Positions 2,540 to 55,904 of a stretch of 64,000 nt of DNA are shown one piece after another. Below the pieces are notes generated by a model. The model saw nothing but the letters and a program-made list of their open reading frames with translations. It ran no database searches and was not told where the DNA came from. The DNA is from a virus: the UHGV virus genome UHGV-0332176, one strand, 5' to 3'. The position numbers and the translations under genes are program-made. Each line of letters begins with the position of its first letter. The stretch's first letter is position 1.

Positions 2540-3946
2540 TTGAAAATGGTAGAATTTATTGCATATCACGGAAGTCAAACAAGTAAATTAAAAATGTATG
2601 AAAATTCAGCATTATATTTTACAACTAATTATAATCAAGCAAAATCTTATGCTAAAAGAGAATGGGATGAAGGACTAATTGAAGGACAAATTCCTGTTGT
2701 ATATAAAGCTAAATTAAATATTGAAAATCCTTATAAAATTAAAGATTATGATGAATTTATGATGGATTTTACTGATACAGGTATGTATGAATATTTTAGG
2801 GAAGAATTGATTGAAAAAGGATATGATTCAGCAATTTATGATGATAAAAAACATAAGTCACAATTAATAGTTATTTTTTATCCATCTCAATATAAAATTT
2901 TAGAAATGGAAAAATTACCACCATCTTTAGAATATTATTATAATGGTGAATTAGAAGACGATGAAGATATAAATGATTACTATTATGAAGATGATTATGA
3001 TGATGAGATTGATGAAGTTTTAAAAAGAGCTGGTATTCAAATTAATGAAGAAAAGATAGATGCTCCATTTCAAATTCCAGAAGTTATTAAAGACAATTTT
3101 AAAATTACTAATTCATTAAAAGATGCAAGTAAATGGAAAGCCAAAATTATTGAAAACAATAGTAATGGTGATGAATCAATTGGTATTGGTGATTGGAATA
3201 ATATTGGTTATGTAATGATTTCATTAAAAGATAATACAATTATTCCTATTGCTCGTGCAGATGAGCATAAACAAGGTTATGAACTTTTATATGAATTACA
3301 AGAGAAATATGGAATAAATGCATCAGATTATTATAGTGTTTGGTGCTTAAAAAATTCAGCAAATTATCCTTATAATAAAGAAGAAGGAGATTTATTGAAA
3401 AAAGCATTAATTAAATGTAAAAGTTATGGTATGGATTTATCAAAATCTTTGGTTTATATGAAATATATAGACCCACTTTATAGAGATAAATCTTATGATG
3501 ATTCTATGATTACAGCTGAAGATTTTATAAATGATAATTATCAAACAGTTGAAAAATTAAATACCTCAATTACAAATACTGGAAATAAATTAATTGATGC
3601 TTTTAAATTGTTAAGTGAAAGTTTTTCTAAAACAAATATTCGTGGCAAGTATTCAATTGTTAATATTAATAAAGCAATAAAGAATTTATATAATGTTGGA
3701 AGTAAAATAATTTTAAAAGATAATTTTAAACTGGTTAGTGATATGGATTTAGAACAAATGCAAGAATTTGTGCAACAGTATAAAGAAGGATATTATAATA
3801 ACAATCAATTGTCAAAAGTATTTTTTGGATTTATGGGATTTAGAAATAATTTTCATCAACGTTTAAGAAAAAACATTGATAATAAAATGCTTGAAAAACA
3901 ATTAGGGTCAGTTGAAAAAATTATAGAAATAATAGGAAGTATATAA
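2540..3946 (+). CDS. hypothetical 468-aa protein with an ART-fold-like N-terminal region (YHGS .. LYFTT)
   Basis: The N-terminal AYHGSQ..ALYFTTNYNQAKSYAK resembles the H-Y-[E] clade of ADP-ribosyltransferases (PARP/Arr-like HGS and YF[ST] motifs). It is paralogous to the N-terminal region of 23930..26890(-) and shares a C-terminal motif with 202..963. Confidence 0.6.
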   Translation: MKMVEFIAYHGSQTSKLKMYENSALYFTTNYNQAKSYAKREWDEGLIEGQIPVVYKAKLNIENPYKIKDYDEFMMDFTDTGMYEYFREELIEKGYDSAIYDDKKHKSQLIVIFYPSQYKILEMEKLPPSLEYYYNGELEDDEDINDYYYEDDYDDEIDEVLKRAGIQINEEKIDAPFQIPEVIKDNFKITNSLKDASKWKAKIIENNSNGDESIGIGDWNNIGYVMISLKDNTIIPIARADEHKQGYELLYELQEKYGINASDYYSVWCLKNSANYPYNKEEGDLLKKALIKCKSYGMDLSKSLVYMKYIDPLYRDKSYDDSMITAEDFINDNYQTVEKLNTSITNTGNKLIDAFKLLSESFSKTNIRGKYSIVNINKAIKNLYNVGSKIILKDNFKLVSDMDLEQMQEFVQQYKEGYYNNNQLSKVFFGFMGFRNNFHQRLRKNIDNKMLEKQLGSVEKIIEIIGSI

Positions 3947-4312: not shown

Positions 4313-4984
4313 ATGTCATTTTTTAATTTAACTAAAATAAAATCAATAACAAAATTAAATAAAATATATAGATTACTTAGTAAAACATATCATCCTGACA
4401 ATAAAGAAACAGGTGATAAAGATAAATTTATTGAGTTAAAAGAAGAATATGATAATGCAAAAAAAGTAATTTCTTCTTCACCAACACCAATTTTAATCAA
4501 TATTTCAACTTCAAAAGCATTCACAGGCTGTGAAGTTAATTATAATAATTGTGGCGATTCTGCCATAATTAAAATTCCTGCTAAATTTTATGATACTATG
4601 GATAGTGCCCTTATTTGTGATAATAATGGAAAATCATATATTGTATCCGTTAAGATAAAACCAGAAAAAGATGAAGCAATTACTTATTCACGAAATGGTG
4701 ATATAATTATTACCAAATATATTGAAATTACACCATTTGATTTAATTGGAAATAATGTTATATCATTTAATTTATTTAATGAAGAAAAACAAATTTTATT
4801 AACAAATAAATTAATAAAAAATATTCAACAACCACTAACATTATTAAATATCGGATACCCTTTGAAAAAAAATAGAAAAAAACGTGGAATTGTTAGAATA
4901 AGATTTAAAATTAAACCTTTATCTATTAAAGATGAAGATAAAAAATTATTAAAAGTTATTGAGGAAAAATATAAATGCCAGTAG
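4313..4984 (+). CDS. J-domain (DnaJ-like) co-chaperone
   Basis: YRLLSKTYHPDNKETGDKDKFIELKEEYDN matches the J-domain helix II/III with its invariant HPD tripeptide. Confidence 0.65.
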   Translation: MSFFNLTKIKSITKLNKIYRLLSKTYHPDNKETGDKDKFIELKEEYDNAKKVISSSPTPILINISTSKAFTGCEVNYNNCGDSAIIKIPAKFYDTMDSALICDNNGKSYIVSVKIKPEKDEAITYSRNGDIIITKYIEITPFDLIGNNVISFNLFNEEKQILLTNKLIKNIQQPLTLLNIGYPLKKNRKKRGIVRIRFKIKPLSIKDEDKKLLKVIEEKYKCQ

Positions 4985-7263
4985 ATGTATATGAAGAAAA
5001 ACTTTTAACCGAAATTGCTATTAAAGCATCGGATATTGCTAAAGAAACAAAATCAAAAATTTTATTACCAGAACATTTTTTATCAGTTATTTTACAAGAT
5101 AAATTTATAGTAAATCTTCTTACAAAAAAAGATACTGAAAAATATGAAAATGTTGTTAAAATGTTAAATGATTTTTGTATGAATTCAAATGATATTGACC
5201 GTATAACGGATGAAGATTCTTCTGATGAATTAATAATTAGTCCATTAATTAGTATATATATTTCATATGTAACTGTATGTAATAAAAGTTGTTTAGATAT
5301 TTTATCAAAAAATAAAGATTTTTATAAAATTAATTTATTGGGAGCTTTTTTATTTATGCATTCAACTTATGCTAATAAAGTTTTAAGAGATAATGGTTTT
5401 GATGTTAATTATATAGATGAAACAGTTGAAAATTTGGCATCAAATATTATTTTTGATGACCGTATTAAACCATTATTAGAAGAAAAAACTTCAAATACTA
5501 AAAATGATAATAATTTTGAAGAAGAATATTTAAATGCATTTACAATTAATTTAACAAATAAAGTTAAACAAAAAGATTGGATTCATATTGTTGGAAGAAA
5601 TGAAGAAATTGATTTAATTAAACAAATTTTATTAAGAAAAGATAAACCAAATGTTATTTTAGTTGGATATTCTGGTGTAGGTAAAACTAAAATTGTTGAA
5701 GGAATTGCGTTTGATTATATTAAAAAACATCCTGAAATTACATTTTTACAATTAGATACTCTTTCATTATTTTCTAATATCGGTATTAAAGGTGAATTAG
5801 AAAATAGAATAAAAAATATATATAATATTATTTCAAAAAAAGGTAATATTATTCTTTTTATTGATGAAATTCATTCTATTTGTAATTCATCTAACAATGC
5901 AAGTCAACCAGATGTTGCTAATTTATTAAAACCATTATTAACAGATGGTAAATTAAAAATTATTGGAGCAACAACTTTTGAAGAATATAGAAAATATATG
6001 GAAAATGATGAAGCATTTACAAGAAGATTTTATAAAATGATAATAAATGAACCTTCTATTGATGAAACGAGAAAGATTATTGCCCAAATTTCAACTAAAT
6101 ATGAAGAATTTTATCATATTAAATATTTACGGAGAGCAAGAGAAACTATTCTTGATTTAACAAAGAAATATATTTTTGATAAACATTTTCCAGAAAAAGC
6201 GATTGATGTATTAGATATGGCTGGTGCATATTGTAAATATATTGATAATTCTGTTTGCGATGTTTTAGAAATTCAGAAAACAATTTCAAGAATGTTAAAT
6301 ATTCCGTTATCTAATATTTCACAATCTGAAGAAGACATTTATCAACACCTTGAAGATAATCTTAAAAAAGAAATTATTGGTCAAGATGAAGCTGTTAACC
6401 AAGTAAGTGATGCCGTTATTATTGCAAGGTCTGGCTTACGAGAAGCAAATAAAACAGCAACTTCGCTAATGTTTAAAGGTTCTTCTGGTGTTGGTAAAAC
6501 AGAAATTTGTAAAGTGTTATCAAAAATTATGAATATTCCATTAGTTAGATTTGATATGTCGGAGTTTATGGAAGAACATAGTGTACCAAAATTAATTGGT
6601 GCTCCTCCTGGATATAAAGATGCGGGTGATGGAAAAGCAGGAAATGGTTTACTAATTAATGCAATTGATGAAAATCCATATTGTATTTTATTATTAGATG
6701 AAATAGAAAAAGCTCATCCAAAAATTCATAATTTATTATTACAAGTAATGGATAATGGTAAATTAACATCTTCAATGGGTAAAAGTGTTTCTTTTGAAAA
6801 TGTATTTTTAATAATGACTTCAAATGTTGGTTCATATAATAGTCATAAAATTGGAATAGGTTTTGGAAATTCAGAAACATCACCATCTGATAAAGATTTT
6901 GAAGATAGCTTTTTACCAGAATTTAGAAATCGTATAGATTCAGTCATTACATTTAACACATTGCCTGAAAGTGTAATGAAGAAAATCTGTAAAAAATTTC
7001 TTAATGAATTAAAAGATATGTTAAGAAATAAAAAGATTGATTTTAAATATAATGATGATATAATAAATTATATAGTTTCAAAAGTTGGTTCTTCTGAAAA
7101 TGGAGCAAGACCAATGAAACATATCATTACTAATGAAATCAAAAATAAAATAGCTAAAAATCTTGTATTTGGAAAATACAAAGAAAACAGTATTATTAAT
7201 TTAACAATGAATGAAAATATTATTAATTTTGAGGTTGAAGAAAAATGTTTGAAAGAAGATTAA
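4975..7263 (+). CDS. ClpA/ClpC-like Hsp100 AAA+ chaperone with two nucleotide-binding domains
   Basis: NBD1 shows GRNEEIDLIKQILLRKDKPNVILVGYSGVGKTKIVEGIAF and IGATTFEEYRKY..AFTRRF. NBD2 shows IIGQDEAVNQVSDAV, GSSGVGKTEICKVLS, RFDMSEFMEEHSV.KLIGAPPGY and LLLDEIEKAHP. At 762 aa it is about the length of ClpA. Confidence 0.8.
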   Translation: MPVDVYEEKLLTEIAIKASDIAKETKSKILLPEHFLSVILQDKFIVNLLTKKDTEKYENVVKMLNDFCMNSNDIDRITDEDSSDELIISPLISIYISYVTVCNKSCLDILSKNKDFYKINLLGAFLFMHSTYANKVLRDNGFDVNYIDETVENLASNIIFDDRIKPLLEEKTSNTKNDNNFEEEYLNAFTINLTNKVKQKDWIHIVGRNEEIDLIKQILLRKDKPNVILVGYSGVGKTKIVEGIAFDYIKKHPEITFLQLDTLSLFSNIGIKGELENRIKNIYNIISKKGNIILFIDEIHSICNSSNNASQPDVANLLKPLLTDGKLKIIGATTFEEYRKYMENDEAFTRRFYKMIINEPSIDETRKIIAQISTKYEEFYHIKYLRRARETILDLTKKYIFDKHFPEKAIDVLDMAGAYCKYIDNSVCDVLEIQKTISRMLNIPLSNISQSEEDIYQHLEDNLKKEIIGQDEAVNQVSDAVIIARSGLREANKTATSLMFKGSSGVGKTEICKVLSKIMNIPLVRFDMSEFMEEHSVPKLIGAPPGYKDAGDGKAGNGLLINAIDENPYCILLLDEIEKAHPKIHNLLLQVMDNGKLTSSMGKSVSFENVFLIMTSNVGSYNSHKIGIGFGNSETSPSDKDFEDSFLPEFRNRIDSVITFNTLPESVMKKICKKFLNELKDMLRNKKIDFKYNDDIINYIVSKVGSSENGARPMKHIITNEIKNKIAKNLVFGKYKENSIINLTMNENIINFEVEEKCLKED

Positions 7264-14785: not shown

Positions 14786-15088
14786 ATGGTTGATATTGAA
14801 AAAATTAAAAAATTAAGTAAAGAATATAATTCATTAAAAGCAATGGAAGACCAACTTGAATGGGTAAAAAATCATCAAAAAGATGTTAAATTACAATTAG
14901 ATAATGATATGACATTTCCTGTATTTGTTGATGAATATAATAATACAATTTGGGCAATGGACTATGAAGATTCTGGTTTAACCGATGAAGATATAGAATT
15001 AAATGAATTCACTTGGTATTTAGGCTGGAATGATGGGGTAAAAATTTTATTAGAATGTTACGGAATTAAAAATTGGGAAGAAGTATAA
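14786..15088 (+). CDS. hypothetical protein
   Basis: 100-aa ORF with an RBS (aaaggag). Confidence 0.5.
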   Translation: MVDIEKIKKLSKEYNSLKAMEDQLEWVKNHQKDVKLQLDNDMTFPVFVDEYNNTIWAMDYEDSGLTDEDIELNEFTWYLGWNDGVKILLECYGIKNWEEV

Positions 15089-15550
15089 ATGTTAAAAATT
15101 ATTAATGGTAATATTTTTGATGGTAATGAAGATATAATATGTCATCAAACAAATTGTTTAGGAATAATGGGTGGTGGAATTGCATTACAAGTTAAAAAAT
15201 TATATCCTAATGTTTATAATGAATATAGTAATTTATGTAAAGATTATAAAGAAAATCCATCTCAATTATTAGGATATACACAATTTGTTAAAACACCTGA
15301 TGACAGAATAATTGCTAATTGTTTTGGTCAATTGGGAATTGGTGCAACAGTACAAACACATTATATGGCATTAGCTATGTCTTTAGCATCGGTCTATCGT
15401 AAAGCAATTCAAGAAAATTTATCAGTTGCTATTCCATATAATATTGGATGTGGTTTAGCAGGTGGTGATTGGAATATTGTTTATGAAATAATTTCTAAAT
15501 TATTTAAAAATACAGATATTAATTGTGTATTATATAAATTTCAGGGTTAA
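15089..15550 (+). CDS. macro domain protein (ADP-ribose binding or hydrolase)
   Basis: INGNIFDGNEDIICHQTNCLGIMGGGIALQVKK matches the macro-domain N-terminal signature (GDIT..D.IVNAAN..L.GGGGV..AI). Confidence 0.6.
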   Translation: MLKIINGNIFDGNEDIICHQTNCLGIMGGGIALQVKKLYPNVYNEYSNLCKDYKENPSQLLGYTQFVKTPDDRIIANCFGQLGIGATVQTHYMALAMSLASVYRKAIQENLSVAIPYNIGCGLAGGDWNIVYEIISKLFKNTDINCVLYKFQG

Positions 15551-16597: not shown

Positions 16598-16984
16598 ATG
16601 TTTGAAAAATTAATAACAAAATTGATTAATTTTCCTCATTGGTGTAAATTAACATTACGTTATTTTATTCAACGTAAAAAATGGGGATTTGATGATACGG
16701 AAACTTGGAATTTAGATTTATCTTTTTATGAATGGTTATTACCAAGATTAAAAAGATTTACTGAATTAACAAATTCATATGATGATTCAAAAAATTCTTT
16801 TGAAAATTGGAAAAAAGAATTAGAAGAAAATATTAAAAAATTAGAATTAATTATTAAATATCAATTTGATGAAGTTAATTTTCCTGTTAATTATCCAAAT
16901 AAATCTTCATTAAATGCATATATTGAAAACCGTCAAGAATTTATGGAATGGTTTGAAAAAAATATTAGTAATTTATGGTGGTAG
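16598..16984 (+). CDS. hypothetical protein
   Basis: 128-aa ORF. Confidence 0.5.
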   Translation: MFEKLITKLINFPHWCKLTLRYFIQRKKWGFDDTETWNLDLSFYEWLLPRLKRFTELTNSYDDSKNSFENWKKELEENIKKLELIIKYQFDEVNFPVNYPNKSSLNAYIENRQEFMEWFEKNISNLWW

Positions 16985-17472
16985 TAATGAAAAACATATT
17001 ATATATTTTTATGAGAAATGATTTGCCTTCAATGAATGTAGGTAAGGCAATGGCACAAGCATCTCACGCTTCAGCACAATTAGTAACAAATTATTCTTCA
17101 AAATTTGAAGATATTAAAAATTGGGCTGAAGAAGGAAAAGGATTTGGAACAACGATTGTTTTAGAGGGTTCTAAAAATTCTATTAGTCATTTATTATTAA
17201 ATGTAATTAATAAAAGATACTCAATAATTACTGGAAATATTATTGATGAAACATATCCATTTAAAGCTCAAAAAGAAATACTTGATTTATTAAATTTTAA
17301 AGATAATGAATATAATATTCAAATTGTAGATGACACAATGGATAAATTTGGTATGATACTTTGTACAAGAAAAGAACATACTTGTTCTTGGATGTTTTTC
17401 CGTGGTAATGAAGATGAACAAGAACATTTTAAAAAATTATGTGAAACATTTAATATTTCACTACATAAGTAA
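16975..17472 (+). CDS. peptidyl-tRNA hydrolase, PTH2 family
   Basis: MRNDLPSMNVGKAMAQASHAS matches the PTH2 motif (M..V.R.DL.M..GK.AAQ..HA). Confidence 0.55.
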   Translation: MVVVMKNILYIFMRNDLPSMNVGKAMAQASHASAQLVTNYSSKFEDIKNWAEEGKGFGTTIVLEGSKNSISHLLLNVINKRYSIITGNIIDETYPFKAQKEILDLLNFKDNEYNIQIVDDTMDKFGMILCTRKEHTCSWMFFRGNEDEQEHFKKLCETFNISLHK

Positions 17473-17855: not shown

Positions 17856-18175
17856 TGCAGATTTATAAATGTATGATTAATAGATATATTGATAAACACG
17901 GTAGTATTAGAGAATATGTTGGATATATTCATCAAAAAAAGATGTCAACTCCTGAAAATGAAGATAATTTTTTTAATGTAGATGAATTAAATGGAGAAAC
18001 AAATGGTGGATTAGATATTACACTTCCAAAAAATCCTAAACCATATCAATATTATAAACTAGTGTATGATTTAAAAATAGATACAATTGAAGGTTTAGAT
18101 TATCATTCTTCTTTATCTGGACATACAACATATTATTATCCAACAAATTTTAGATTAGAGGAATATAATGAGTAA
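17855..18175 (+). CDS. hypothetical protein
   Basis: 106 aa. Confidence 0.45.
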   Translation: MQIYKCMINRYIDKHGSIREYVGYIHQKKMSTPENEDNFFNVDELNGETNGGLDITLPKNPKPYQYYKLVYDLKIDTIEGLDYHSSLSGHTTYYYPTNFRLEEYNE

Positions 18176-18614
18176 TAGATTTAAATATAGATTATGGAAT
18201 GAACTTGAACAAAACTTTAAATATTATAATTTATTAAATTCCGAAAGTGTATCTGATTTTGGATATGATGTGGAAGAAGATATGTATGATTATAATGAAA
18301 GAGTTACATATAATCATAATGATAAAACATTTGTTTGTTTAGAACAAGGTTGTAATATTATTGATGATGATAATAAAGATTTATATGAAGGTGATATTGT
18401 TAGTGTAACACGATATAATAGTGATTGGACAGATGAAACATCTGATTATATTGGTATTATTAAATACTTTTCAGAATTTAATTCATTAGGAATTAAAACA
18501 ATTGATAAAAGATATAATACCGCATTTGCTATTGATATGCTTATAAAAAATATTAAATTAATTGGAAATATCCATCAAAATAAAGATATTTTAAAGGAAT
18601 ATAATTATGAGTAA
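18168..18614 (+). CDS. hypothetical protein
   Basis: 148 aa. Confidence 0.45.
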   Translation: MSNRFKYRLWNELEQNFKYYNLLNSESVSDFGYDVEEDMYDYNERVTYNHNDKTFVCLEQGCNIIDDDNKDLYEGDIVSVTRYNSDWTDETSDYIGIIKYFSEFNSLGIKTIDKRYNTAFAIDMLIKNIKLIGNIHQNKDILKEYNYE

Positions 18615-19320
18615 TGAATATAAAGATATGCTTTATGATGATATGTATGATAATGCATTTGAATATGCTTATTTTAAGCATCTAAATCAAAGAAGAAAGT
18701 GGACAGATGAACGATACATTAATCACCCAATAAATGTTCAACAAATTATGTGTGAACATATGAATACAATTGATACTTATGGTTGGTTTGATAGATTGGA
18801 AGAAGTAAATATATTTTCTGCCTGCTTGTTGCACGATACTGTTGAAGATACAGATGCAACTTTTGTTGATATTGAAGAAAAATTTGGTATTTATGTTAGA
18901 AATTTAGTTTATTGGTTAACAAATGTTTCAACACCTGAAATGGGTAATAGAGCATATAGGAAGAAAGTTGATTTACAGCATATTCTTCAAGCACCTATTG
19001 AAGCAATTTGTATTAAGTTGGCAGATGTTATTGATAATTGTTCTAATATTGTTAAATCTGAAAAATTTTATAATGATAATTTAAGAAAAGTTACTGAATT
19101 ACCATCAACATTTTCTGAAAAATATCTTAAAGAAAAGAAAACATTTTTAAAAGCATTGTGGAAACTTAAAAAAGAAAAATTTGATGTGGATTATGAAAAA
19201 TTAGAAGATAATACACCATCTAAAATGTTTTTAAAAAAATGGTTAATTGTTTTTAATAAATTATATAATGATTGTCAAAAAATTGTTGATGAGCAAATGA
19301 AATTATTAAATAATTCTTAA
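18607..19320 (+). CDS. HD-domain phosphohydrolase, RelA/SpoT-type (small alarmone hydrolase-like)
   Basis: YINHPINVQQIM..ACLLHDTVEDTDATFVDIEEKFG matches the SpoT/Mesh1 HD hydrolase motifs (HP..VA, LLHDVVEDT, FG). Confidence 0.6.
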   Translation: MSNEYKDMLYDDMYDNAFEYAYFKHLNQRRKWTDERYINHPINVQQIMCEHMNTIDTYGWFDRLEEVNIFSACLLHDTVEDTDATFVDIEEKFGIYVRNLVYWLTNVSTPEMGNRAYRKKVDLQHILQAPIEAICIKLADVIDNCSNIVKSEKFYNDNLRKVTELPSTFSEKYLKEKKTFLKALWKLKKEKFDVDYEKLEDNTPSKMFLKKWLIVFNKLYNDCQKIVDEQMKLLNNS

Positions 19321-19623
19321 TCCATTTTTCCAATAAAATTCTAAATCATCATCTGAATCATAACGAATTTTGGCAAATTGTAAATGAGAAATAGCATCTT
19401 GCGGTGAAATATTAAACCATTCACCGCAAGATTTTTTATCTTTTAAATCTCTATGAATTAAATGTTCAATTATTCTAACTTTAGAATCTTGTACTTCTTC
19501 TTTATAATATAATTGAAGTTTATTCATATTTCCTGTTTGTAATTGTTTTAATCGTTTTTCAGGAGTTTTTGAAAAACCTATTTTTACTTGATTTTCTGTG
19601 CCTATGACATATATATAACTCAT
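19306..19623 (-). CDS. T5orf172 / GIY-YIG-like domain protein (homing-endonuclease-like)
   Basis: The N-terminal SYIYVIGTENQVKIGFSKTPEKRLKQLQTG matches the T5orf172 (GIY-YIG-related) motif. Confidence 0.5.
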   Translation of the reverse strand: MSYIYVIGTENQVKIGFSKTPEKRLKQLQTGNMNKLQLYYKEEVQDSKVRIIEHLIHRDLKDKKSCGEWFNISPQDAISHLQFAKIRYDSDDDLEFYWKNGLRII

Positions 19624-22076: not shown

Positions 22077-23330
22077 ATGAAAACTTATTTAGTTGGTGGA
22101 GCAGTTAGAGATAAATTACTTGGAAAAGAACCACACGATAAAGATTATGTTGTAGTGGGTTCAACTATTGAAGAAATGCTATCACTTGGTTTTACACAAG
22201 TTGGTAAAGATTTTCCTGTATTCCTTCATCCTAAAACAGGGGAAGAATATGCTCTTGCTCGTACTGAACGTAAAACAGGTAGTAAACATACTGATTTTTC
22301 ATTTGAATTTTCTTCTAATATAACTCTTGAAGAAGATTTAATAAGACGTGATTTTACAATTAATGCAATGGCAATGAATATGGAAACAGGTGAAATCATT
22401 GATTATTTTAATGGAAAACAAGATTTAGAAAATAAAATCCTGCGTGCAGTAAGACCTGAAACTTTTATTGAAGACCCTCTTAGAGTATTGCGTGGATGTC
22501 GTTTTGCTGCTCAATTAGATTTTTCTATTGCTCCTGAAACAATGGAATTATTTAAACAAATGGTTTTAGATGGTATGCTAGAACATTTAACTGCAGAAAG
22601 AGTTTGGAAAGAAACTGAAAAAGCATTAGCAATAGTTTATCAATCTGAAAAATATTTTGAAAATTTAAGAAAATGTGGAGCATTAAAACTTTTAATGCCT
22701 GAAGTTAATAGATTATTTGATACTCCCGAACAACTTAAATATCATCCATCGGGAAATTCAGGTAAACATACAATGATTGCATTAACACGAGTTCAAAATG
22801 AAAATTCTTTAACAAAATTCATTGTATTATGTCACGATTTTGGTAAAGGTGTCACACCTGCTGATATTTTGCCAAAACATAGTGGACACGATGAAAGAGG
22901 GTTAGCTGAAATTGATGCTTTTTGTGATAGATTAAAAGTTCCTAATAATTATCGTGAAAATGCAAAAACATTTTGTAAAAATCATATGCGTATGGCTCGT
23001 TTTCCTGAAATGAATGTTAAAAAGCAATATGATATGATTAAAGAACTTTCTAATAATTTTAAAAATATTGAAACTTTACAAATGTTTATTGAAGGTTTTT
23101 ATGCTGATTGGACAGGTGAAAATGAACAAACAGCGTGGAATGATACAAAAGAAGCTGATGATATTACATATGTAATGAAAAAAATTTTTAATATTATGTA
23201 TGGTATTACTTTAAAAGATTTACCAGAAAAAACACAAGAAGATTTAAGTAAACAAAAAGGTGAAAAATTTGGTAAACTTTATCGTGATGCAATGATAAGT
23301 TATTTAAAATTTAATTTGAAAAATTCTTAA
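22077..23330 (+). CDS. cca: tRNA nucleotidyltransferase (CCA-adding enzyme) with an HD domain
   Basis: The N-terminal YLVGGAVRDKLLGKEPHDKDYVVVGS is the class II nucleotidyltransferase head motif. A downstream HD-like motif is present (LCHDFGKG). At 417 aa it is similar to bacterial CCA enzymes. Confidence 0.75.
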   Translation: MKTYLVGGAVRDKLLGKEPHDKDYVVVGSTIEEMLSLGFTQVGKDFPVFLHPKTGEEYALARTERKTGSKHTDFSFEFSSNITLEEDLIRRDFTINAMAMNMETGEIIDYFNGKQDLENKILRAVRPETFIEDPLRVLRGCRFAAQLDFSIAPETMELFKQMVLDGMLEHLTAERVWKETEKALAIVYQSEKYFENLRKCGALKLLMPEVNRLFDTPEQLKYHPSGNSGKHTMIALTRVQNENSLTKFIVLCHDFGKGVTPADILPKHSGHDERGLAEIDAFCDRLKVPNNYRENAKTFCKNHMRMARFPEMNVKKQYDMIKELSNNFKNIETLQMFIEGFYADWTGENEQTAWNDTKEADDITYVMKKIFNIMYGITLKDLPEKTQEDLSKQKGEKFGKLYRDAMISYLKFNLKNS

Positions 23331-23367: not shown

Positions 23368-23904
23368 TTGGGTTTCTTACAAGAATTTAACTTGCTTTTT
23401 AAGGAGATAAAAATGACTAAAAATAATTTAGTATCATTATTTGATGATATTTTTGATAATAAAAATTCTTTTATTGGTTTTAACGAACTTTTTAACGATT
23501 TATCTAAATTTGATTTAAATCTTACAGAACGTGGTATTAAAGATTCTTTTCCACCATATAATGTTTATACAAAAGATGTTGATGTTTCTGGTAAAGATGA
23601 ACCAGAAATGTTATTAACTCATACTTTTATTGAAGTTGCTTGTGCAGGATTTAGAAAAGAAGAACTTTCAATAAAATTTGATGAAGACAGTTCAATTTTA
23701 ACTGTTGAAGGAAATGCTAAACATAAACCAGATATTGAAGATGTAAAATATTCTTATAAAGGTATTGCAACAAGATTATTTCAACGCCAATGGAAATTAT
23801 CTGGAAAATTAAAATTTGTTAAAGCATCTTATGAAGATGGAATTTTAAAAATGGAATTTGAACCACGAATGGAAGATAAAGTTACATCACTTCCGATTGA
23901 ATAA
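23368..23904 (+). CDS. small heat-shock protein (Hsp20/alpha-crystallin family)
   Basis: LTVEGNAKHK..YKGIATRLFQRQWKLSGKLKFVKASYEDGILKMEF matches the alpha-crystallin domain. Confidence 0.65.
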   Translation: MGFLQEFNLLFKEIKMTKNNLVSLFDDIFDNKNSFIGFNELFNDLSKFDLNLTERGIKDSFPPYNVYTKDVDVSGKDEPEMLLTHTFIEVACAGFRKEELSIKFDEDSSILTVEGNAKHKPDIEDVKYSYKGIATRLFQRQWKLSGKLKFVKASYEDGILKMEFEPRMEDKVTSLPIE

Positions 23905-23932
23905 AAAAGAGGAGCAAAAGCTCCTCTTTTTA
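23905..23932. terminator. bidirectional hairpin terminator between convergent genes
   Basis: aaagaggagcaaaagctcctcttttt. Confidence 0.7.
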
Positions 23933-26890
23933 ATCATTTATACCCCATTTGATATTATCAAGATTTCCATATAATTGTTTTAAGAACCATCCAAATTTTT
24001 CTTTTGTTATTCTAACAGCATCTTCAAAATCTTCATCAGGTGAAATATATATCCATATTAAAACTTCATTATTATCACATAGTGTCCCTGCTATATCACC
24101 ATCAACGTCAAAATCATTATTAATAACACCGTGGACAGCTTCATCAGCATCCCAAATAAATAATGTTTTATTAAATGAATTGTAAAAAAATCTAAATGCA
24201 CCATATGCTGTTTTTGAAAAAGAATTTTTTATCCATTCAGCAGAAGGATTTTTCCAAATAGTTAAATATTTATTTTCTTCTGTCCAATCATCATAAAAAT
24301 CACCTTTATAAAAAATTGATTCGTTAATTTGTTTATCTTTATATATGTTATAAAGTTTTAATCCTGATTCTTTTGGCAATTCATTATATAATGAAAATTG
24401 ACCAACTTTAAATTCTGTATTTCCATCTTGTGAAACAATAAACCATTCTTTTCTTAAAGTTTTAATATCTGGTAAAATATATCTATCTTTATTATAAAGA
24501 ATAGCAACAGGTATATCTACATTAGGTTCTTTCCTTTTAACAGAAGCAACTCTATGTCTTCCTTCGTGATTTGTTACAATAAGTTTTTTATTTTTTTCAT
24601 CAACATCAACTTTTAAAAATGGAATACCATATGGTTTTCTTTCATCAATTTGTTTATCAAACCATTCATCATCGCCATATGAATATTTCGGACAAAGTTT
24701 TAAAAATTGAAATGGATACATAGTAGCAAATAAATTATGACCAATTGTTGCAGGAACATTACCTAATGCATCCATATTATTTTGCCAATTAACATTTCCA
24801 TACCAAGATGATTCATTAATTGAATTGTCCCACATTTTATGTAAAGTTTTATAAATCAAATTTATTTGATGTTTATCAAATTTCCATAATTTATTAATGT
24901 TTTCATCTGCCCATTCAAATGGAGTATTACCATATTTTTTAGACATTGCACACCAATCAGCACACATTTCAATTATTGCATCGTCAGGCATTTTGCCACA
25001 AACATCAGGTATTTGACCATCGTGTGTCCAAGATTTATCCCAAAATTGAGAATGATGAGATGCTTGCTTATAATGTTTATCTTGTGTATTTTTAAATTCT
25101 TTCCATTCATTAGGATTTAATGATTGCTTACCTATCACAAATCCTTTAACATATGGAATAAACATATCAGGTTTTAATTTATCTAAATCGTGATTTGGAT
25201 AATTTTTTCCAACTTTAGATGCATAATAATTAACTAATTGACGATGTTTAGCTAATATTTGTAAAAATTCTTGTTTATCTTCTTCTGATACAATAGTTTG
25301 ATTATATTTTAAATTATTTGATTCATCTAGTAAACCTAAATCGTCATCGGCATATAATTCTTCCCATTTTTCTTTTGGAATAGTATTTGTAGAATTATCT
25401 TTTGAATTATATCCTAATTTATTAAACCAATCACTAAATGTAAAACCCCAAATATCATAATCATTTTTTCTAAACATTACATTAGCAAAACCATCTCTGA
25501 ATTTTTTATCAACTGGATAAATGTATCTTCTAAAAATATCATCGTGAGTTCCGTAATATGCATCCCAAACATAAATATCATCATTAAAATGAGGACCAAC
25601 AATTGCTCTTAATTGTTTATTCTTGGAATTTTTTAATAAATCATTAAATTCTTTTTTAGTAGGATTTTTTAAAATAGTGAAAAAAACGTCATCACCTTGT
25701 ACATCTTTCCATTGAGTAGCATAAAAAAGACTTTCTTCTAAAAATCCATTATTTTTTAAATATTGAGGAATTAAAGTATTATAATAATTAAAAGTTTTTT
25801 TAAAATCTGATATTGCATCAAATTTATTACATTCATAAATTTTACGATAAATTTTATTTTGTGTATATATGACTATTTCAGATGATTCATTGATATTATT
25901 TTGTTGATTTGTATGAGCAATATCTTCTTTTTTGAAAAAACGCTCATCATAAATAGGATGTTTTATATCTAAATCAAAAATATCAATATTTAATATTAAT
26001 GATGAAATAATATCAGTATCACCAGTTTCGCTTTCCACTCTACAATATTGGTCTCCATCTTTATCTACATTGACAGCTTTAACAATCCATTTAATATTAT
26101 TTTCATCTATATATGCCATACCTGGTTCAAATTCAATATAATCATTATCAAACATTACACCAGTATTACCAAATTCAGATTTTCTTTTAACATATCCTTC
26201 ATCTAAATTTCTTGGTTGTTTTTTTATTAAATGAATAAGTTTATTATCTAAAATTGCAACATTATTTGTTCCGCCTTCAGTTAATAAAACTGAATTAAAA
26301 CTTTTTTTAATAATATCTAAATATTGTTCTGTAATTTCCCAATTATCAAGAAAATTAATATCATCATTTTTAAAATCCATCCAAGAATTATAATAATGAA
26401 TATTATACATATCATCATAATATTTAATTTTACCAACTTTTGATTCAAGCCATTCATAATGTGACTTGCTTGATAAATCAAAACAGTTGGATAAATCTAA
26501 TTGGGCAATATAAACCCATTTTCCATATTGTTCAGCAAAATTAATATCTGAAGACCAAAAACTTGGTGTTTTAAATTTATTAATATTATTGACGGGTGAA
26601 CCGTGATAATATACGTTAGAATATGCTGTTTCAAATATTGGTCTGGCAATTATTTTTACATAATCATTTTCAAATACTAATGAATTTTTAACATTTTCAT
26701 TAAGATTTTTAAAAGATTCTGATAAATTTTGAGGTTTATTAAATTGAATTTTTTGACAATTTTTTTTAATATCATCAAAAGAAAACCAATTTAATATGTT
26801 ATTATTATTTAATAATATATTATTATTTTTAATACATTCTACAATAAAAATTTGATGACCAAAACGTATTTTGTTTCCGACTTTTAACAT
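23930..26890 (-). CDS. 986-aa late protein with an ART-fold-like N-terminal region (candidate Alt-like packaged ADP-ribosyltransferase)
   Basis: The N-terminal ..SNVYYHGSPVNNINKFKTPSFWSSDINFAEQYGKW is paralogous to the N-terminus of 2540..3946. A TATAAATA late-promoter motif lies upstream on the minus strand (26926-26933). This is the only long minus-strand gene in the region. Confidence 0.6.
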   Translation of the reverse strand: MLKVGNKIRFGHQIFIVECIKNNNILLNNNNILNWFSFDDIKKNCQKIQFNKPQNLSESFKNLNENVKNSLVFENDYVKIIARPIFETAYSNVYYHGSPVNNINKFKTPSFWSSDINFAEQYGKWVYIAQLDLSNCFDLSSKSHYEWLESKVGKIKYYDDMYNIHYYNSWMDFKNDDINFLDNWEITEQYLDIIKKSFNSVLLTEGGTNNVAILDNKLIHLIKKQPRNLDEGYVKRKSEFGNTGVMFDNDYIEFEPGMAYIDENNIKWIVKAVNVDKDGDQYCRVESETGDTDIISSLILNIDIFDLDIKHPIYDERFFKKEDIAHTNQQNNINESSEIVIYTQNKIYRKIYECNKFDAISDFKKTFNYYNTLIPQYLKNNGFLEESLFYATQWKDVQGDDVFFTILKNPTKKEFNDLLKNSKNKQLRAIVGPHFNDDIYVWDAYYGTHDDIFRRYIYPVDKKFRDGFANVMFRKNDYDIWGFTFSDWFNKLGYNSKDNSTNTIPKEKWEELYADDDLGLLDESNNLKYNQTIVSEEDKQEFLQILAKHRQLVNYYASKVGKNYPNHDLDKLKPDMFIPYVKGFVIGKQSLNPNEWKEFKNTQDKHYKQASHHSQFWDKSWTHDGQIPDVCGKMPDDAIIEMCADWCAMSKKYGNTPFEWADENINKLWKFDKHQINLIYKTLHKMWDNSINESSWYGNVNWQNNMDALGNVPATIGHNLFATMYPFQFLKLCPKYSYGDDEWFDKQIDERKPYGIPFLKVDVDEKNKKLIVTNHEGRHRVASVKRKEPNVDIPVAILYNKDRYILPDIKTLRKEWFIVSQDGNTEFKVGQFSLYNELPKESGLKLYNIYKDKQINESIFYKGDFYDDWTEENKYLTIWKNPSAEWIKNSFSKTAYGAFRFFYNSFNKTLFIWDADEAVHGVINNDFDVDGDIAGTLCDNNEVLIWIYISPDEDFEDAVRITKEKFGWFLKQLYGNLDNIKWGIND

Positions 26891-27961: not shown

Positions 27962-28548
27962 AAAAATATAATCTCCCTGACCTTGATATTGATATGGGTC
28001 AAACAACACGTGATGCAATTTTAAATAAATTGCATCACATTCCTGCATCTAAAATAAATGATAAAGGAATTAATCCGCACGGAGTGGGAATTTATTTTTG
28101 TAATATACCATATGATAGATTAACAGGTTTAGCTTCAATAGATTATAAGCACGCTGAAGAAGATTTAGGATATATTAAATTAGATTTTCTTCATAATACT
28201 GTTTATGATAAATTTACTTCTCGTCAACAAATTTTAAATATTATTAATAATGAACCAAATTGGAATTTATTATATAAAAAAGAAATTGTTGAACAATTAC
28301 CGCATATTAATAATTATTTTACTTTATTAAATCAATTACCGAAAATTAATTCTATTGAAAAATTAGCAATGTTTATTGCTATCATTAGACCTGCAAAAAA
28401 ATATTTAATTGATGAAGTTATTAAAAATGATTGGGAATCTATTAATGATAGAATATGGTTAAAAGAAGATTCAGGATATATGTATAAAAAATCACACGCT
28501 ATTGCATATGCGTTATCAATTATTGTTGCTCTTGGTCAAATTAATTAA
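27949..28548 (+). CDS. hypothetical protein
   Basis: 199 aa. The stop overlaps the stop of the convergent gene 28545..28973 at TTAA. Confidence 0.5.
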   Translation: MEEIKKYNLPDLDIDMGQTTRDAILNKLHHIPASKINDKGINPHGVGIYFCNIPYDRLTGLASIDYKHAEEDLGYIKLDFLHNTVYDKFTSRQQILNIINNEPNWNLLYKKEIVEQLPHINNYFTLLNQLPKINSIEKLAMFIAIIRPAKKYLIDEVIKNDWESINDRIWLKEDSGYMYKKSHAIAYALSIIVALGQIN

Positions 28549-28973
28549 TATCCGCTTGCATACCAAAATGAACCATTTGAAGTATCACCTGCTTTACTTC
28601 CTGATGAAAAATAAGTAAAATTATTTTTAGTTCTTGAATCCCATTTAATCCATCCATATATCCAACTACCAGAAGAATTATAAACTGTTATAACTGGAAT
28701 ATAACTTGTAGTGTTAAATGGAGTTAAAAAATTAATTGTTCCTTCACCAGCATTATTTAAATTAATAATAATATTTCCACCTTGTTCAATAAATCCATCA
28801 TTCCATTTACGATACCATCTATTGCCATCGGTTGAAGCATCAACAACATATTTCATTGAATTAATTTTTGAATCAATATTATTTAATAAATTTGTAAAAT
28901 TTAATGTTATTTCATTAAATTTATCAATTAATCCATTGATTCTTTCCATATCTATTTTACTTATATCAGCCAT
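28545..28973 (-). CDS. small late protein, paralog family A (coiled-coil N-terminus, beta-rich C-terminus; candidate fibre/adhesin or decoration protein)
   Basis: Paralogous to 32053..32532(-) and 47601..48050(-). It shares NxxWYRKWNDGxIEQGG with the 47601 paralog. Confidence 0.6.
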   Translation of the reverse strand: MADISKIDMERINGLIDKFNEITLNFTNLLNNIDSKINSMKYVVDASTDGNRWYRKWNDGFIEQGGNIIINLNNAGEGTINFLTPFNTTSYIPVITVYNSSGSWIYGWIKWDSRTKNNFTYFSSGSKAGDTSNGSFWYASGY

Positions 28974-32599: not shown

Positions 32600-33811
32600 C
32601 TAATAATCCCTTCTAAATTCATTTCCCCAAAAGTTATAATTACCACCAGTATTATAACCTTTAAAATATGATGCTCTGCCATATTTGTCATAAGTTTGAT
32701 AAGTTTTTTGTGATAAACTTATTGCCATTGAAACATCGTGTGTTTTATTTTTTGGATATTTATATACTAAATAATAATTTCCTCTATTTGTATGAACATA
32801 AATTCTATCATTTTTAGCATCATAAAATAAAGTTCCATTTAATTTTTGAGAATCTTTAACATTTTTACTATTTCCAACTCTAAATGTTGGAGCAACAGTT
32901 AATATTGCATCACGAACAGCAATATCTCCAACTGAACCCATACCATTTTTAGGAGCTTCATCAAAATAATAGATAACATTTGATGTTGATTTCCATTCAT
33001 CATCTATTTTTTTATATAATGTTTGTAAAATAGCAACACTTGAATACATACCATTAGTAAAGGTATATTGGGATAAATTATCAGATTTTGTTAATTGGGC
33101 AGCATTTATAAAAATACCATATGAATCATTAATAGTTGAAAATATAGGGTTATTATTTTTATCTAACAATTTAATAATACATTTTAAAATTAATGATGTT
33201 TTAAATTTTGCTGTAACATAGACCCTATAAATATCATCGCTAATTTTGGAAATTCCGCCATTATGTATTTGAATTTCTCCAAAATCAGTATCAATTTTTT
33301 GAACTGTAGCATTATTTTTTGAAATATCACATAAAACATTTACACCAAAAATTTCTTTATTATCCATTAAACATACAGCAATATTTGTTAATTCAACTGT
33401 TTTAACATATAAACTAAATGTAAAAGTTGATGTTAAATCATTATAAAAAATATATTCTGCTCTATGTTCTGCATTAACTGTTGATGATGTCATTTTTGAA
33501 CATTGATTATATGGAAATAAAACTAATGGTTCTTTGGTTATTTTTGTATTTGTTTTAATCCAATTAGGAGCATTAAAATTTTCTGAATATTTAATATAAT
33601 TGTATAATCTTATATATTTTGCATAATAATCACCATTAATACCAATATCATTTGTTGGTAATTTTTTTTCATTTTTATATAAATGTTGATTAATTGATTC
33701 CCATTTTGTTGTATTTTTTACCCATAATGAACCATCAAATGAAGGGAAAATTAAATCTTTTTTATGGTCAATATTAATTGAATTTTGCATATTAATCCTA
33801 TATTTTAACAA
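32600..33811 (-). CDS. hypothetical virion protein
   Basis: 403 aa on the minus strand with an RBS. Confidence 0.5.
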   Translation of the reverse strand: MLKYRINMQNSINIDHKKDLIFPSFDGSLWVKNTTKWESINQHLYKNEKKLPTNDIGINGDYYAKYIRLYNYIKYSENFNAPNWIKTNTKITKEPLVLFPYNQCSKMTSSTVNAEHRAEYIFYNDLTSTFTFSLYVKTVELTNIAVCLMDNKEIFGVNVLCDISKNNATVQKIDTDFGEIQIHNGGISKISDDIYRVYVTAKFKTSLILKCIIKLLDKNNNPIFSTINDSYGIFINAAQLTKSDNLSQYTFTNGMYSSVAILQTLYKKIDDEWKSTSNVIYYFDEAPKNGMGSVGDIAVRDAILTVAPTFRVGNSKNVKDSQKLNGTLFYDAKNDRIYVHTNRGNYYLVYKYPKNKTHDVSMAISLSQKTYQTYDKYGRASYFKGYNTGGNYNFWGNEFRRDY

Positions 33812-36865: not shown

Positions 36866-38152
36866 ATGGCTAATGAAAATGCAACTAAAATTCAATTAAG
36901 ACACGATTCATCTGCAAATTGGTTTGCTAATAATCCAATTTTAGCTGAAGGTGAAGTTGGTATTGAAATTGATAAAAATAGAATGAAAGTTGGTAATGGT
37001 GTAAGTCATTACAATGATTTAGAATATTTTTCTGATACTGTTGATTATAATGAATTAATTAATAAACCACAAATTAATAGTATCGGTTTGATGGGTAACT
37101 TATCTTTACACGAATTAGGTATTCAAGCAGAAGGCGATTATGCAACTGTATTAACTTTAACAGAAGGTTTATCAGAAAAAGCTGATAAAGCTGATACTTA
37201 TACTAAAACTGAAATTGATACTGAATTTTCTTCACTTATTAAAGTTCCAGCTATTGATGGACACGATGGAGAATGGTTAACTAATAAAGATGGAGTAGTT
37301 AAATGGGAAAATCTTGGTGATTCAGTTGTTACTAATGAAGAATTAACAACTGCATTAGAACCATATGCTTTAAAAACTAATATACCTACAAAAAATTCTC
37401 AATTAGAAAATGATTCTGACTTTGTAACTTTAACTGAATTAGCAGAATCTGATTATGTAACAAATACAAATTTAACAACTAAATTAGGTGAATATGTTAC
37501 TAATACTGCATTAGCTGAAGAAGGATATGCAAAAAATAGTGAATTAGCTCAAGTTGCAAAATCAGGTTCATATAATGATTTAACAAATAAACCAACTATT
37601 CCAACTGTTCCTGAAAATATTACAACTCAAGGAAATACTTTTAACGGAGCTAATCAATTAGTAAAATTAGAAGCTGATGGTAAATTACCAGCATTAGATG
37701 GAAGTAAATTAACTGGAATAAGTTCTGGAACATCTGATTATTCTGTATTATCTAATAAGCCACAAATTAATTCAGTTGAATTATCAGGTAATAAAACATT
37801 AGACCAATTAGGAATTCAAGCTAAAGGAGATTTTGCAGTTAAATCAACTACATTATCTGGATATGGTATTACAGATGCATATACAAAGACTGAATCTGAT
37901 AATAAATATGCAACTCAAACTTCTTTGAATTCTTATTTAACAACTGCATCAGCTTCTACAACTTATGCTACTAAAACAGAATTAGTAGATAAAGCTGATG
38001 TTGAAGATATTCCACAAGGAAATCAATTAATGGCTGGACAAGCTCCTACTGTTGCCGATATTAGTGCAGAAACAGTTACAGATATTCCAGGTTTAATTAG
38101 TGCAATTAATGCAATTTTAGCTCAATTAAGAACACGTAATGTTATTGAATAA
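36866..38152 (+). CDS. tail fibre protein (repeat-containing; paralog of 38170..38925)
   Basis: Repeats YTKTEIDTEF, LSEKADKADTYTKTE and SNKPQINSVELSGNKTLDQLGIQAKG. The C-terminus LAQLRTRNVIE is shared with 38170. Confidence 0.6.
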   Translation: MANENATKIQLRHDSSANWFANNPILAEGEVGIEIDKNRMKVGNGVSHYNDLEYFSDTVDYNELINKPQINSIGLMGNLSLHELGIQAEGDYATVLTLTEGLSEKADKADTYTKTEIDTEFSSLIKVPAIDGHDGEWLTNKDGVVKWENLGDSVVTNEELTTALEPYALKTNIPTKNSQLENDSDFVTLTELAESDYVTNTNLTTKLGEYVTNTALAEEGYAKNSELAQVAKSGSYNDLTNKPTIPTVPENITTQGNTFNGANQLVKLEADGKLPALDGSKLTGISSGTSDYSVLSNKPQINSVELSGNKTLDQLGIQAKGDFAVKSTTLSGYGITDAYTKTESDNKYATQTSLNSYLTTASASTTYATKTELVDKADVEDIPQGNQLMAGQAPTVADISAETVTDIPGLISAINAILAQLRTRNVIE

Positions 38153-38169
38153 ATTAAAGGAATAATTAT

Positions 38170-38925
38170 ATGACAGAAAGAATTGATATTAAATATGTAT
38201 TAAAAGATACAAAAGCAAATTGGACAAGTTTTAATCCAATTTTATCAAAAGGTATTATGGCTTATGAAACTGATACAAATTTAATTAAATTATTTGATGG
38301 TGTTTCTGATTATAATTCATTAGCATATATTGGTGGAACAGGTGGTTCATCTACACCAACTGATTATGCATCTTTATCTAATAAACCACAAATTAATTCA
38401 GTTGAATTATCAGGTAATAAAACATTAGACCAATTAGGAATTCAAGCTAAAGGTAATTATTTGGTTTCATCTGATTTAAATAATTATGCTTTGAAATCTG
38501 AATTACCTACAAATACAAGTGATTTAACAAATGATTCTGGATTTTTAACATCTATTCCTTCAGAATATGTTACTGAAACAGAATTAAATAGCAGTTTAGA
38601 AGATAAAGCTGATACTGCAACAACTTTATCTGGATATGGTATTACAGATGCATATACAAAAACTGAAGCTGATGGTAAATATGCAACAAAAACTGAATTA
38701 TCTAATAAAGCTGATACAAGTGCATTATCTAATTATGCAACTACATCTGCTTTAACAGAAGGATTAGCAGAAAAAGCCGATACAAGTGCATTACCTGCTT
38801 CAACTTCTTTAATGAATGGAACTGCTCCTTCTGTTGCTGATTTTGCAGGAGCTGATGCAGAAGGATTAAAAACAGAATTAAATGCATTTTTAGCCCAACT
38901 TAAAACTCGTGGTGTAATTGCATAA
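38170..38925 (+). CDS. tail fibre protein (paralog of 36866..38152)
   Basis: Shares a 77-bp near-identical DNA block (38377-38453 versus 37751-37827) and the C-terminus LAQLKTRGVIA. Confidence 0.6.
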   Translation: MTERIDIKYVLKDTKANWTSFNPILSKGIMAYETDTNLIKLFDGVSDYNSLAYIGGTGGSSTPTDYASLSNKPQINSVELSGNKTLDQLGIQAKGNYLVSSDLNNYALKSELPTNTSDLTNDSGFLTSIPSEYVTETELNSSLEDKADTATTLSGYGITDAYTKTEADGKYATKTELSNKADTSALSNYATTSALTEGLAEKADTSALPASTSLMNGTAPSVADFAGADAEGLKTELNAFLAQLKTRGVIA

Positions 38926-55897: not shown

Positions 55898-55904
55898 ATT
55901 TTAT

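Follow-up and report, generated by a model that had tools for sequence, protein, structure and literature searches.

The SAH gene and its family

The window considered here, a stretch of 64,000 nucleotides from the virus genome UHGV-0332176, carries a gene for a small alarmone hydrolase (SAH) at 18607..19320 on the forward strand. In the list of open reading frames (ORFs) of the window it appears as one ATG-initiated ORF of 237 residues followed by a stop codon. The original prediction, made from the sequence alone, had placed a phage HD-domain hydrolase with a RelA/SpoT signature at these positions, and the ORF was found to be real and exactly so delimited. Both motifs quoted in that prediction were found in the translation, NHPINVQQIM at residues 39-48 and LLHDTVEDTDATFVDIEEKFG at residues 74-94. 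The assignment to the SAH class is based on the HD_4 domain, the match to Mesh1 and the AlphaFold and Foldseek results described below. A Shine-Dalgarno-like AAGGA can be read directly at 18594..18598 (+), 8 nucleotides before the ATG and within the 3' end of the upstream YopX gene. Alignment showed that the N-terminal sequence MSNEYKDW is common to SAH homologues down to about 40% identity, confirming the start codon. A promoter scan returned 95 sites compared with 87 expected and was uninformative in DNA of 26% guanine plus cytosine (GC).

The GC content of the gene (24.6%) is close to that of the window (25.8%), indicating that the gene is native to the genome. The ratio of nonsynonymous to synonymous substitution rates (dN/dS) was 0.23-0.27 when the gene was compared with orthologues of 96% and 78% identity, and the SAH is thus under purifying selection. 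The phage origin that had been proposed was borne out by a baseplate hub/tail lysozyme-like protein, tail-fibre domains and 19 tRNA genes in the window, and by near-identical or related SAHs on viral contigs of 207-290 kb, some of the related contigs measuring 280-290 kb. The source is an uncultivated jumbo-type phage. Megablast of positions 14-24 kb of the window against cultured phages gave no match, and the protein matches obtained in cultured phages by tblastn were all below 60% identity.

Profile searches were employed to assign the protein to a family. HD_4 (PF13328), the Pfam model named in the original prediction, matched residues 17-150 with 33.8 bits, above its gathering cutoff of 27.2, while the generic HD model scored lower, at 26.2 bits. 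These were the only Pfam domains above cutoff in the protein. The NCBIfam model TIGR00691 (spoT_relA) matched residues 17-148 with an E-value of 2.8e-16 over model positions 1-122, which represent the hydrolase part; the score did not reach the cutoff set for full-length proteins, which is unsurprising for a single domain. The phage family phrog_990, annotated as a metal-dependent phosphohydrolase, matched at E 1.3e-31, and PADLOC gave no match for the SAH. Since neither a synthetase nor a TGS or ACT domain is present in the polypeptide, the protein is a single-domain RelA/SpoT-homologue (RSH) hydrolase.

Sequence searches gave a similar picture. The top matches in the PDB were Drosophila Mesh1 (3nqw, E 1.4e-15, aligned over SAH residues 16-148) and human MESH1 (E 1.4e-12), followed by the Listeria HD protein Lmo0812 (4yf1), Rel/SpoT hydrolase domains and bacterial SAHs. 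A library of 1.84 billion proteins contained 7,456 cluster representatives at E <= 1e-3 and 1,267 at E <= 1e-10. Only 9 remained at E <= 1e-30, a small clade marked by an insertion at residues 51-66 and a long C-terminal hairpin. A homologue is present in 112 cultured-phage records. The best profile, sequence and structure matches were all RSH hydrolase domains, in agreement with the proposed SpoT/Mesh1 identity. The RSH profiles, and not generic HD phosphohydrolases lacking the ED..D residues, were the best matches, and the HD, ED and D..N residues are invariant. The possibility that the protein is a generic HD phosphohydrolase is therefore ruled out by the RSH-specific profiles scoring best and by the presence of the ED dyad.

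Active site, fold and relation to known enzymes

The catalytic core (residues 17-150; 18655..19056, +), as delimited by HD_4, TIGR00691 and the Mesh1 alignment, contains three conserved motifs. The first, QRRKWTDERYINH (18694..18726, +), runs from the substrate-binding pair Arg30-Lys31 to the first metal ligand, His40, and aligns with QQRRK...YINH of human MESH1. The second, HDTVED (18832..18849, +), holds the HD pair His76-Asp77 and the catalytic ED pair Glu80-Asp81; these four residues are invariant, and the motif aligns with the same letters in Mesh1. The third, KLADVIDN (19015..19038, +) contains Lys137, the metal ligand Asp140 and Asn144, all three invariant, and aligns with Mesh1 KLADKLxN. 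In an alignment of 59 homologues, H25, R30, Y37, H40, H76, D77, E80, D81, T82, R115, K137, D140 and N144 were invariant and K31 was nearly so. The positions that hold Mn2+ according to the motif alignment with Mesh1 (H40, H76, D77 and D140), together with the ED pair, are all among the invariant residues. We take the equivalent Mesh1 residues to be R24, H35, H61-D62, E65-D66, D122 and N126, the arginine and asparagine presumably positioning the substrate there. The Mesh1 residue numbering is reportedly that of Sun et al. 2010.

An AlphaFold2 model built from the 59 homologues had a predicted local distance difference test score (pLDDT) of 95.9, a predicted template modelling score (pTM) of 0.92 and 11 helices. 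When the model was compared with the PDB using Foldseek, the top 48 matches were all RSH hydrolase domains (Mesh1, SAH, Rel, SpoT and RelA) with a probability of 1.00. The TM-score normalised to the target reached 0.82, for the Pseudomonas aeruginosa SAH; normalised to the query, it was only 0.5-0.56 for Mesh1. Among predicted viral structures the best matches were phage HD or '(p)ppGpp hydrolase' proteins. The 87 residues on the carboxyl side of HD_4 form two helices that, in the model and by Foldseek, are continuous with the SAH fold.

Two parts of the protein are peculiar to its clade. The insertion at residues 51-66, HMNTIDTYGWFDRLEE (18757..18804, +), lies between core helices 2 and 3 and was recognised from alignment gaps and a loop in the model, which spans residues 53-62. 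It corresponds to a gap of 10 residues opposite Mesh1 and of 12 residues opposite PaSpo, the SAH of Salmonella phage SSU5 (SSU5_099), and is confined to the closest homologues (P0001-P0028 of the alignment). The second part is an elongated C-terminal helical hairpin (19111..19314, +), assigned from the secondary structure of the model, with helices at residues 169-198 and 204-236. The first of these helices is lysine-rich, with a net charge of +4 by charge count, and the hairpin is longer than that of SAHs of 165-190 residues.

PaSpo is the nearest functionally tested homologue, with 35% identity over 179 aligned positions (pairwise E 6e-29). The two proteins are alike in being phage-encoded and single-domain, in having no adjacent toxin and in sharing HD_4 and the same catalytic residues. 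However, the SAH of the window is 24 residues longer and has the 12-residue insertion after core helix 2, a 14-residue insertion at residues 153-166 and the longer C-terminal hairpin. The phages also differ, the window having a GC content of 25.8% and related contigs of 280-290 kb, whereas SSU5 measures 103 kb. The best solved matches by both sequence and fold are Mesh1 and human MESH1 (HDDC3; 3nqw, 3nr1 and 5vxa), in which the QRRK, INHP, LLHDTVEDTD and KLAD..N motifs are identical to those of the window SAH. Mesh1 differs in being a eukaryotic cellular enzyme of about 179 residues that lacks both the insertion at residues 51-66 and the long hairpin.

The bacterial SAHs PaSAH (P. aeruginosa, 6yvc), RelH (Corynebacterium glutamicum, 7qoc/7qod) and ATfaRel (C. 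marina, PbcSpo subfamily) have the same catalytic motif and the same fold as the window SAH, with TM-scores of 0.73-0.82 normalised to the target, but the structural alignments show just 17-21% identity and the E-values by sequence are weak (5e-4). They are chromosomal, and ATfaRel lies in an operon with its toxin, unlike the window SAH. Aph1 from a Bacteroides caccae prophage (7smg) is likewise a phage-associated HD-domain 3'-pyrophosphohydrolase, but it is specific for (p)ppApp and acts as an immunity protein next to its toxin, whereas no toxin gene adjoins the window SAH. Its published signature consists of D24, R96, D116, R119, K133, Y134 and a compact 8-helix fold (PMC10083569). The PDB search gave no sequence match to 7smg at E <= 1, Foldseek gave an E-value of 1.2e-2, the window SAH model has 11 helices rather than 8, and Asp24 of Aph1 is replaced in the window family by the invariant Arg30, a correspondence taken from motif alignment only. 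Judged by Arg30, the missing sequence match and the modelled number of helices, the window SAH does not appear to be of the Aph1 type.

Genomic neighbourhood

The SAH gene overlaps the genes on both sides. The start overlaps by 8 nucleotides the upstream YopX-domain gene (18168..18614, +; Pfam YopX, 31 bits), and the two genes are probably co-transcribed. The same YopX-SAH arrangement recurs in the related loci L001-L004 and L102-L104. The 3' end overlaps by 15 nucleotides a convergent, GIY-YIG-like gene with Pfam MUG113 and T5orf172 domains (19306..19623, -). This gene is 99% identical in L002, whose SAH is 78% identical, and more generally it is 99% identical in relatives with flanking genes at 74-86%. 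Because its identity is far above that of the SAH and the flanks, it behaves as a selfish insertion and probably is one, and the pattern fits the recent horizontal spread of a homing-type element. In L005 its position is taken by a gene for the RNA ligase RtcB. A RelA_SpoT synthetase domain was absent from all scanned ORFs of the 64 kb window and from the called genes of the related loci, indicating that the SAH is stand-alone and not the antitoxin of a local module of the toxic small alarmone synthetase (toxSAS) type.

At somewhat greater distance the SAH is flanked by genes of tRNA maintenance. It lies 1.1 kb downstream of a PTH2-type peptidyl-tRNA hydrolase gene (16975..17472, +; Pfam PTH2, 31.7 bits with a cutoff of 23), which is syntenic in relatives, and 2.8 kb upstream of a gene for a CCA-adding tRNA nucleotidyltransferase (22077..23330, +). 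The latter has the Pfam domains PolyA_pol and PolyA_pol_RNAbd, is 43% identical to annotated phage CCA tRNA nucleotidyltransferases and contains an HD motif of its own (LCHDFGKG, with HD at residues 253-254). The order RNase H-(PTH2)-SAH-(RtcB)-CCA holds in every member of the lineage that was examined, down to an SAH identity of 48%. RtcB lies directly downstream of the SAH in L005/L006, and in L008 the SAH and the CCA-adding enzyme have one small ORF between them. RtcB was also found 3-4.5 kb from SAH homologues in L009 and L010, two phage contigs of different organisation. In Xanthomonas phage XacN1 four tRNA genes lie near the SAH, the first of them about 0.7 kb away. The conserved placement between PTH2 and the CCA-adding enzyme, with RtcB in a distant relative, hints from gene order at a role in tRNA-end repair, and these flanking genes fit the finding that SAHs can strip tRNA CCA ends of the 3'-pyrophosphate added by toxSAS enzymes. 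However, the whole region is collinear among the related phages, so that the synteny of the SAH with tRNA-repair genes may reflect only conservation of the genomic backbone.

The 80 best IMG/VR SAH loci were sampled for a more general linkage. RtcB was present within 10 kb of the SAH in 1/80 loci and the CCA-adding enzyme in 5/80. Although tRNA genes occurred in the flanks of 35/80 loci, this corresponds to 8/27 clusters at 70% identity, and there was neither enrichment nor a gradient toward the SAH in the 80 loci, for which no matched control was available: the control set built from the RNase H of the window comprised 7-10 loci, too few for a baseline. These counts thus did not demonstrate that phage SAHs are in general linked to genes of tRNA repair or to arrays of tRNA genes. 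The SAHs of BcepSaruman and JA29 lie among hypothetical genes, and the tRNA array of the window is 36 kb from the SAH.

Several observations concern the tRNA-maintenance genes themselves. The CCA-adding enzyme is full-length (417 residues) in the window, and its orthologue is cut to 246 residues in L001 and L003, where a TnsA-like endonuclease gene on the reverse strand and then a 176-residue ORF come after the fragment (L001 13468-15649; L003 14195-16377), suggesting that the gene was split by a mobile endonuclease in these loci. In L010 (312-4847), an unrelated 110-kb phage contig, the SAH homologue lies 3 kb from RtcB, with HAD_SAK_2, Metallophos phosphoesterase and GIY-YIG genes ahead of RtcB in what looks like another RNA-repair-like cluster. 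Within 4 kb, the unrelated Salmonella phage PVP-SE1 (L091 12001-16143) encodes the RNA-repair nucleotidyltransferase RlaP, a CCA-adding enzyme and a 'hydrolase' that weakly resembles PTH2; together with the PTH2 of the window, this cluster suggests a recurrent phage tRNA-maintenance module. The PVP-SE1 'hydrolase', gp162, lies beside the CCA-adding enzyme and was considered as the SAH tested from that phage, but it is weakly PTH2-like and has no SAH similarity. A 403-residue ORF of the window at 32600-33811 (-) was considered as an RtcB and rejected, since it has no Pfam match and the L005 RtcB (403 residues) gave no tblastn match in the window.

Further genes of the window were noted as well. 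A macrodomain protein of 153 residues (15089-15550, +), together with 14786-15088, matched the PADLOC model of the DarG antitoxin (E 5.9e-21) and Pfam Macro. We regard it as a candidate gene of counter-defence against DarT, with a putative ADP-ribosyl-DNA hydrolase as its product. No tblastn match to it was found in L001-L003, L005 or L102-L104 (L004 and L006 lay outside the search), and the gene therefore looks like a window-specific insertion. A chaperone set comprises a weak DnaJ-domain protein (22.5 bits, cutoff 27.8) and, directly after it, a ClpB-like double-AAA+ protein of 762 residues (together at 4313-7263, +), the latter conserved in the distant relative L005, and also an HSP20 small heat-shock protein (23368-23904, +) downstream of the CCA-adding enzyme. 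An ART-PolyVal-like ADP-ribosyltransferase domain at 2540-3946 (+) scored just under the Pfam cutoff. In relatives, the counterparts of the 986-residue DUF5662 protein at 23930-26890 (-) are polyvalent proteins of 1038-1398 residues with ART-PolyVal domains.

The 19 tRNA genes are arrayed at 55383-63069, all on the forward strand with small ORFs interspersed, and include three tRNA-Met, two tRNA-Ile (GAT and TAT anticodons), two tRNA-Lys and two tRNA-Asn. At 51680-52941 (+), a fragment-like ORF of 177 residues with a match to the DNA polymerase III alpha NTPase domain is followed by an N6/N4 DNA methylase, and the polymerase gene may be split or interrupted. Two adjacent proteins with the N-terminal domain of the major tropism determinant (Mtd_N) are encoded at 36866-38925 (+), and Gp53-like tail-fibre C-terminal domains occur in two small ORFs (28545-28973, -, and 47601-48050, -), one of them just under the Pfam cutoff. 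The Mtd_N and Gp53-like proteins look like receptor-binding modules and could be variable.

Predicted function and its alternatives

The gene thus encodes a protein of defined family and fold with an intact active site, is under purifying selection, has no partner toxin and lies in a conserved neighbourhood. We infer that it has enzyme activity on one or more alarmone-like substrates and a role in counter-defence. Specifically, we assign a probability of about 0.8 to the reading that it is a stand-alone SAH of the Mesh1/PaSpo type, predicted to be catalytically competent, by which a low-GC jumbo-type phage would cancel growth arrest of the RelA/SpoT type. In the proposed mechanism, one Mn2+ would be held by His40, His76, Asp77 and Asp140, the Glu80-Asp81 pair would activate a water molecule, and Arg30, Lys31, Lys137 and Asn144 would position the substrate, from whose ribose the 3'-linked pyrophosphate would be cleaved. 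Candidate substrates, all of them known for this class of enzymes, are (p)ppGpp, (p)ppApp and/or tRNA with a 3'-pyrophosphorylated CCA end made by toxSAS. The SAH would be expressed in infection together with its upstream neighbours and would erase the products of the stringent response and/or of toxSAS abortive-infection toxins such as CapRel, PhRel and FaRel2, keeping host translation and metabolism running.

Support for this role comes from experiments on related SAHs. PaSpo and the SAH of PVP-SE1 neutralise all five toxSAS tested, CapRel, PhRel, PhRel2, FaRel2 and FaRel (PMC7229694). PaSpo removes the tRNA modification installed by FaRel2 (PMC11245113), and when CapRel, PhRel2 or FaRel2 is expressed it is routinely used to counter their toxicity (PMC9712102). 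MESH1 cleaves (p)ppGpp, and pyrophosphorylated tRNA can be aminoacylated again after the action of either MESH1 or ATfaRel (doi 10.1101/2021.04.30.441581). In phage defence, the known toxSAS families target the CCA end of tRNA and do not work via alarmones (doi 10.1101/2021.04.30.441581), so that a tRNA substrate needs to be considered, which fits the flanking tRNA-repair genes.

Some points weigh against this assignment. The nearest functionally tested homologue is only 35% identical. The specificity of SAHs varies, Aph1 and SAHMex cleaving only (p)ppApp (PMC10083569), and MESH1 is also an NADPH phosphatase according to work cited in doi 10.1101/2021.04.30.441581. The insertion at residues 51-66 and the long hairpin are without a characterised counterpart and could reflect a change of specificity or the binding of a partner. 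A restriction to adenosine nucleotides like that of Aph1 is argued against by the invariant Arg30 and by the closer resemblance of sequence and model to Mesh1 than to Aph1.

The possibility was considered that the enzyme is dedicated to tRNA 3'-end repair, with 3'-pyrophosphorylated (or 3'-phosphorylated) tRNA as its main substrate, in a cassette with PTH2, the CCA-adding enzyme and, in relatives, RtcB. SAHs are proven to de-pyrophosphorylate tRNA (doi 10.1101/2021.04.30.441581), and the distances of 1.1 kb and 2.8 kb to PTH2 and the CCA-adding enzyme, the gene order kept to 48% SAH identity, the position of RtcB in L005/L006, L009 and L010, the spacing in L008 and the tRNA genes beside the XacN1 SAH all point in this direction. 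However, collinearity may account for the synteny by itself, the 80 IMG/VR loci gave low counts for RtcB and the CCA-adding enzyme and no concentration of tRNA genes near the SAH, the BcepSaruman and JA29 SAHs have hypothetical genes around them, and the tRNA array of the window is distant. We regard such a dedicated role as possible but unlikely. A bolder version would hold that the SAH is not an alarmone scavenger at all but the 'healing' step for tRNA 3' ends in a clustered PTH2 - SAH - RtcB - CCA-adding enzyme rescue pathway, which would reverse several host tRNA-directed defences, the insertion and the lysine-rich hairpin binding tRNA; this proposal is speculative and a little less likely still. 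If the preferred reading of a Mesh1/PaSpo-type SAH is instead narrowed to the stringent response, the enzyme would hydrolyse the (p)ppGpp that host RelA/SpoT synthesise as infection depletes amino acids or nucleotides. The synthesis of rRNA, tRNA and nucleotides would then stay high for phage production, and toxSAS would play no part. Arg30 is invariant at the position aligned with the QQRRK motif of Mesh1; the equivalent arginines of Rel-type enzymes stack on guanine, and the (p)ppApp-specific Aph1 has Asp there (PMC10083569). Mesh1, which cleaves ppGpp, is a nearer match in sequence and fold (Foldseek E 4e-6) than Aph1, and jumbo-phage 'HD-alarmone phosphodiesterases (PDEases)' have been predicted to target the stringent-response alarmone (PMC7824862). 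However, Arg30 is equated with the guanine-stacking arginine by motif alignment and not by superposition, Mesh1-like SAHs are promiscuous (ppGpp, ppApp, pyrophosphorylated tRNA and NADPH), and the sequence excludes none of the other substrates. An exclusive role of this kind is, like dedicated tRNA repair, possible but unlikely.

Activities further removed from alarmones were also weighed. The best solved relatives are Mesh1 proteins, including complexes of MESH1 with NADPH and with 3'-phosphoadenosine 5'-phosphosulfate (PAPS; 5vxa and 9chy), and the NADPH phosphatase activity reported for MESH1 has been mentioned above; the SAH might accordingly remove the 3'/2'-phosphate of NADPH or PAPS as a metazoan-type MESH1, or be a generic HD nucleotidase altering the make-up of nucleotide pools. 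This is improbable, as the closest tested homologue by sequence is PaSpo and not Mesh1, and PaSpo counteracts RSH toxins; moreover, the generic HD model scored below HD_4, and NAD(P)-metabolism genes were not found nearby. Finally, SAHs are known as antitoxins or immunity proteins (PMC7229694, PMC10083569), and the gene could in principle be the type IV antitoxin of a phage-borne toxSAS module, in the manner of ATfaRel and Aph1, shielding the phage or lysogen from its own toxin. The adjacent genes, however, are the YopX and T5orf172 endonuclease-like genes, and the lack of a RelA_SpoT domain in the scanned ORFs of the window and in the called genes of related loci makes this the least probable of the explanations; as the antitoxin of a toxSAS in the window itself, the SAH was rejected on the scanned ORFs.

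A 2020 publication described SAHs that stand alone in phages and proposed counter-defence as their role (PMC7229694). The blunting of the stringent response or of toxSAS abortive infection, which the original prediction also anticipated, is thus the published expectation, shown by experiment for the SAHs of SSU5 and PVP-SE1 (PMC7229694). A 2021 catalogue of jumbo-phage genes by Iyer, Anantharaman, Krishnan, Burroughs & Aravind included 'HD-alarmone PDEases', PTH2, CCA-adding enzymes and RtcB (PMC7824862); its group 2/3 jumbo-phage enzymes are of the same predicted class as the window SAH, and such genes are now annotated routinely in phage genome papers (PMC12846349). Since the concept, the chemistry and the occurrence in jumbo phages have all been published, the SAH is a divergent addition to a known class and raises no new question. 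The only mildly new element is its conserved embedding in a tRNA-maintenance cluster, which suggests, on the strength of gene order, a tRNA-directed role: PTH2, the CCA-adding enzyme and RtcB were listed as RNA-repair genes of jumbo phages separately from the alarmone PDEases (PMC7824862), whereas the window lineage has them adjacent in conserved order.

If active, the enzyme would provide broad-spectrum cancelling of the stringent response, of (p)ppApp toxins or of tRNA-pyrophosphorylating toxSAS defence such as CapRel. To the small set of phage SAHs, just two of them tested, it contributes a divergent sequence from a low-GC lineage with a confident structural model. Moreover, its placement between PTH2 and the CCA-adding enzyme offers a testable hint that phage SAHs may belong with tRNA repair rather than with the degradation of nucleotide signals.

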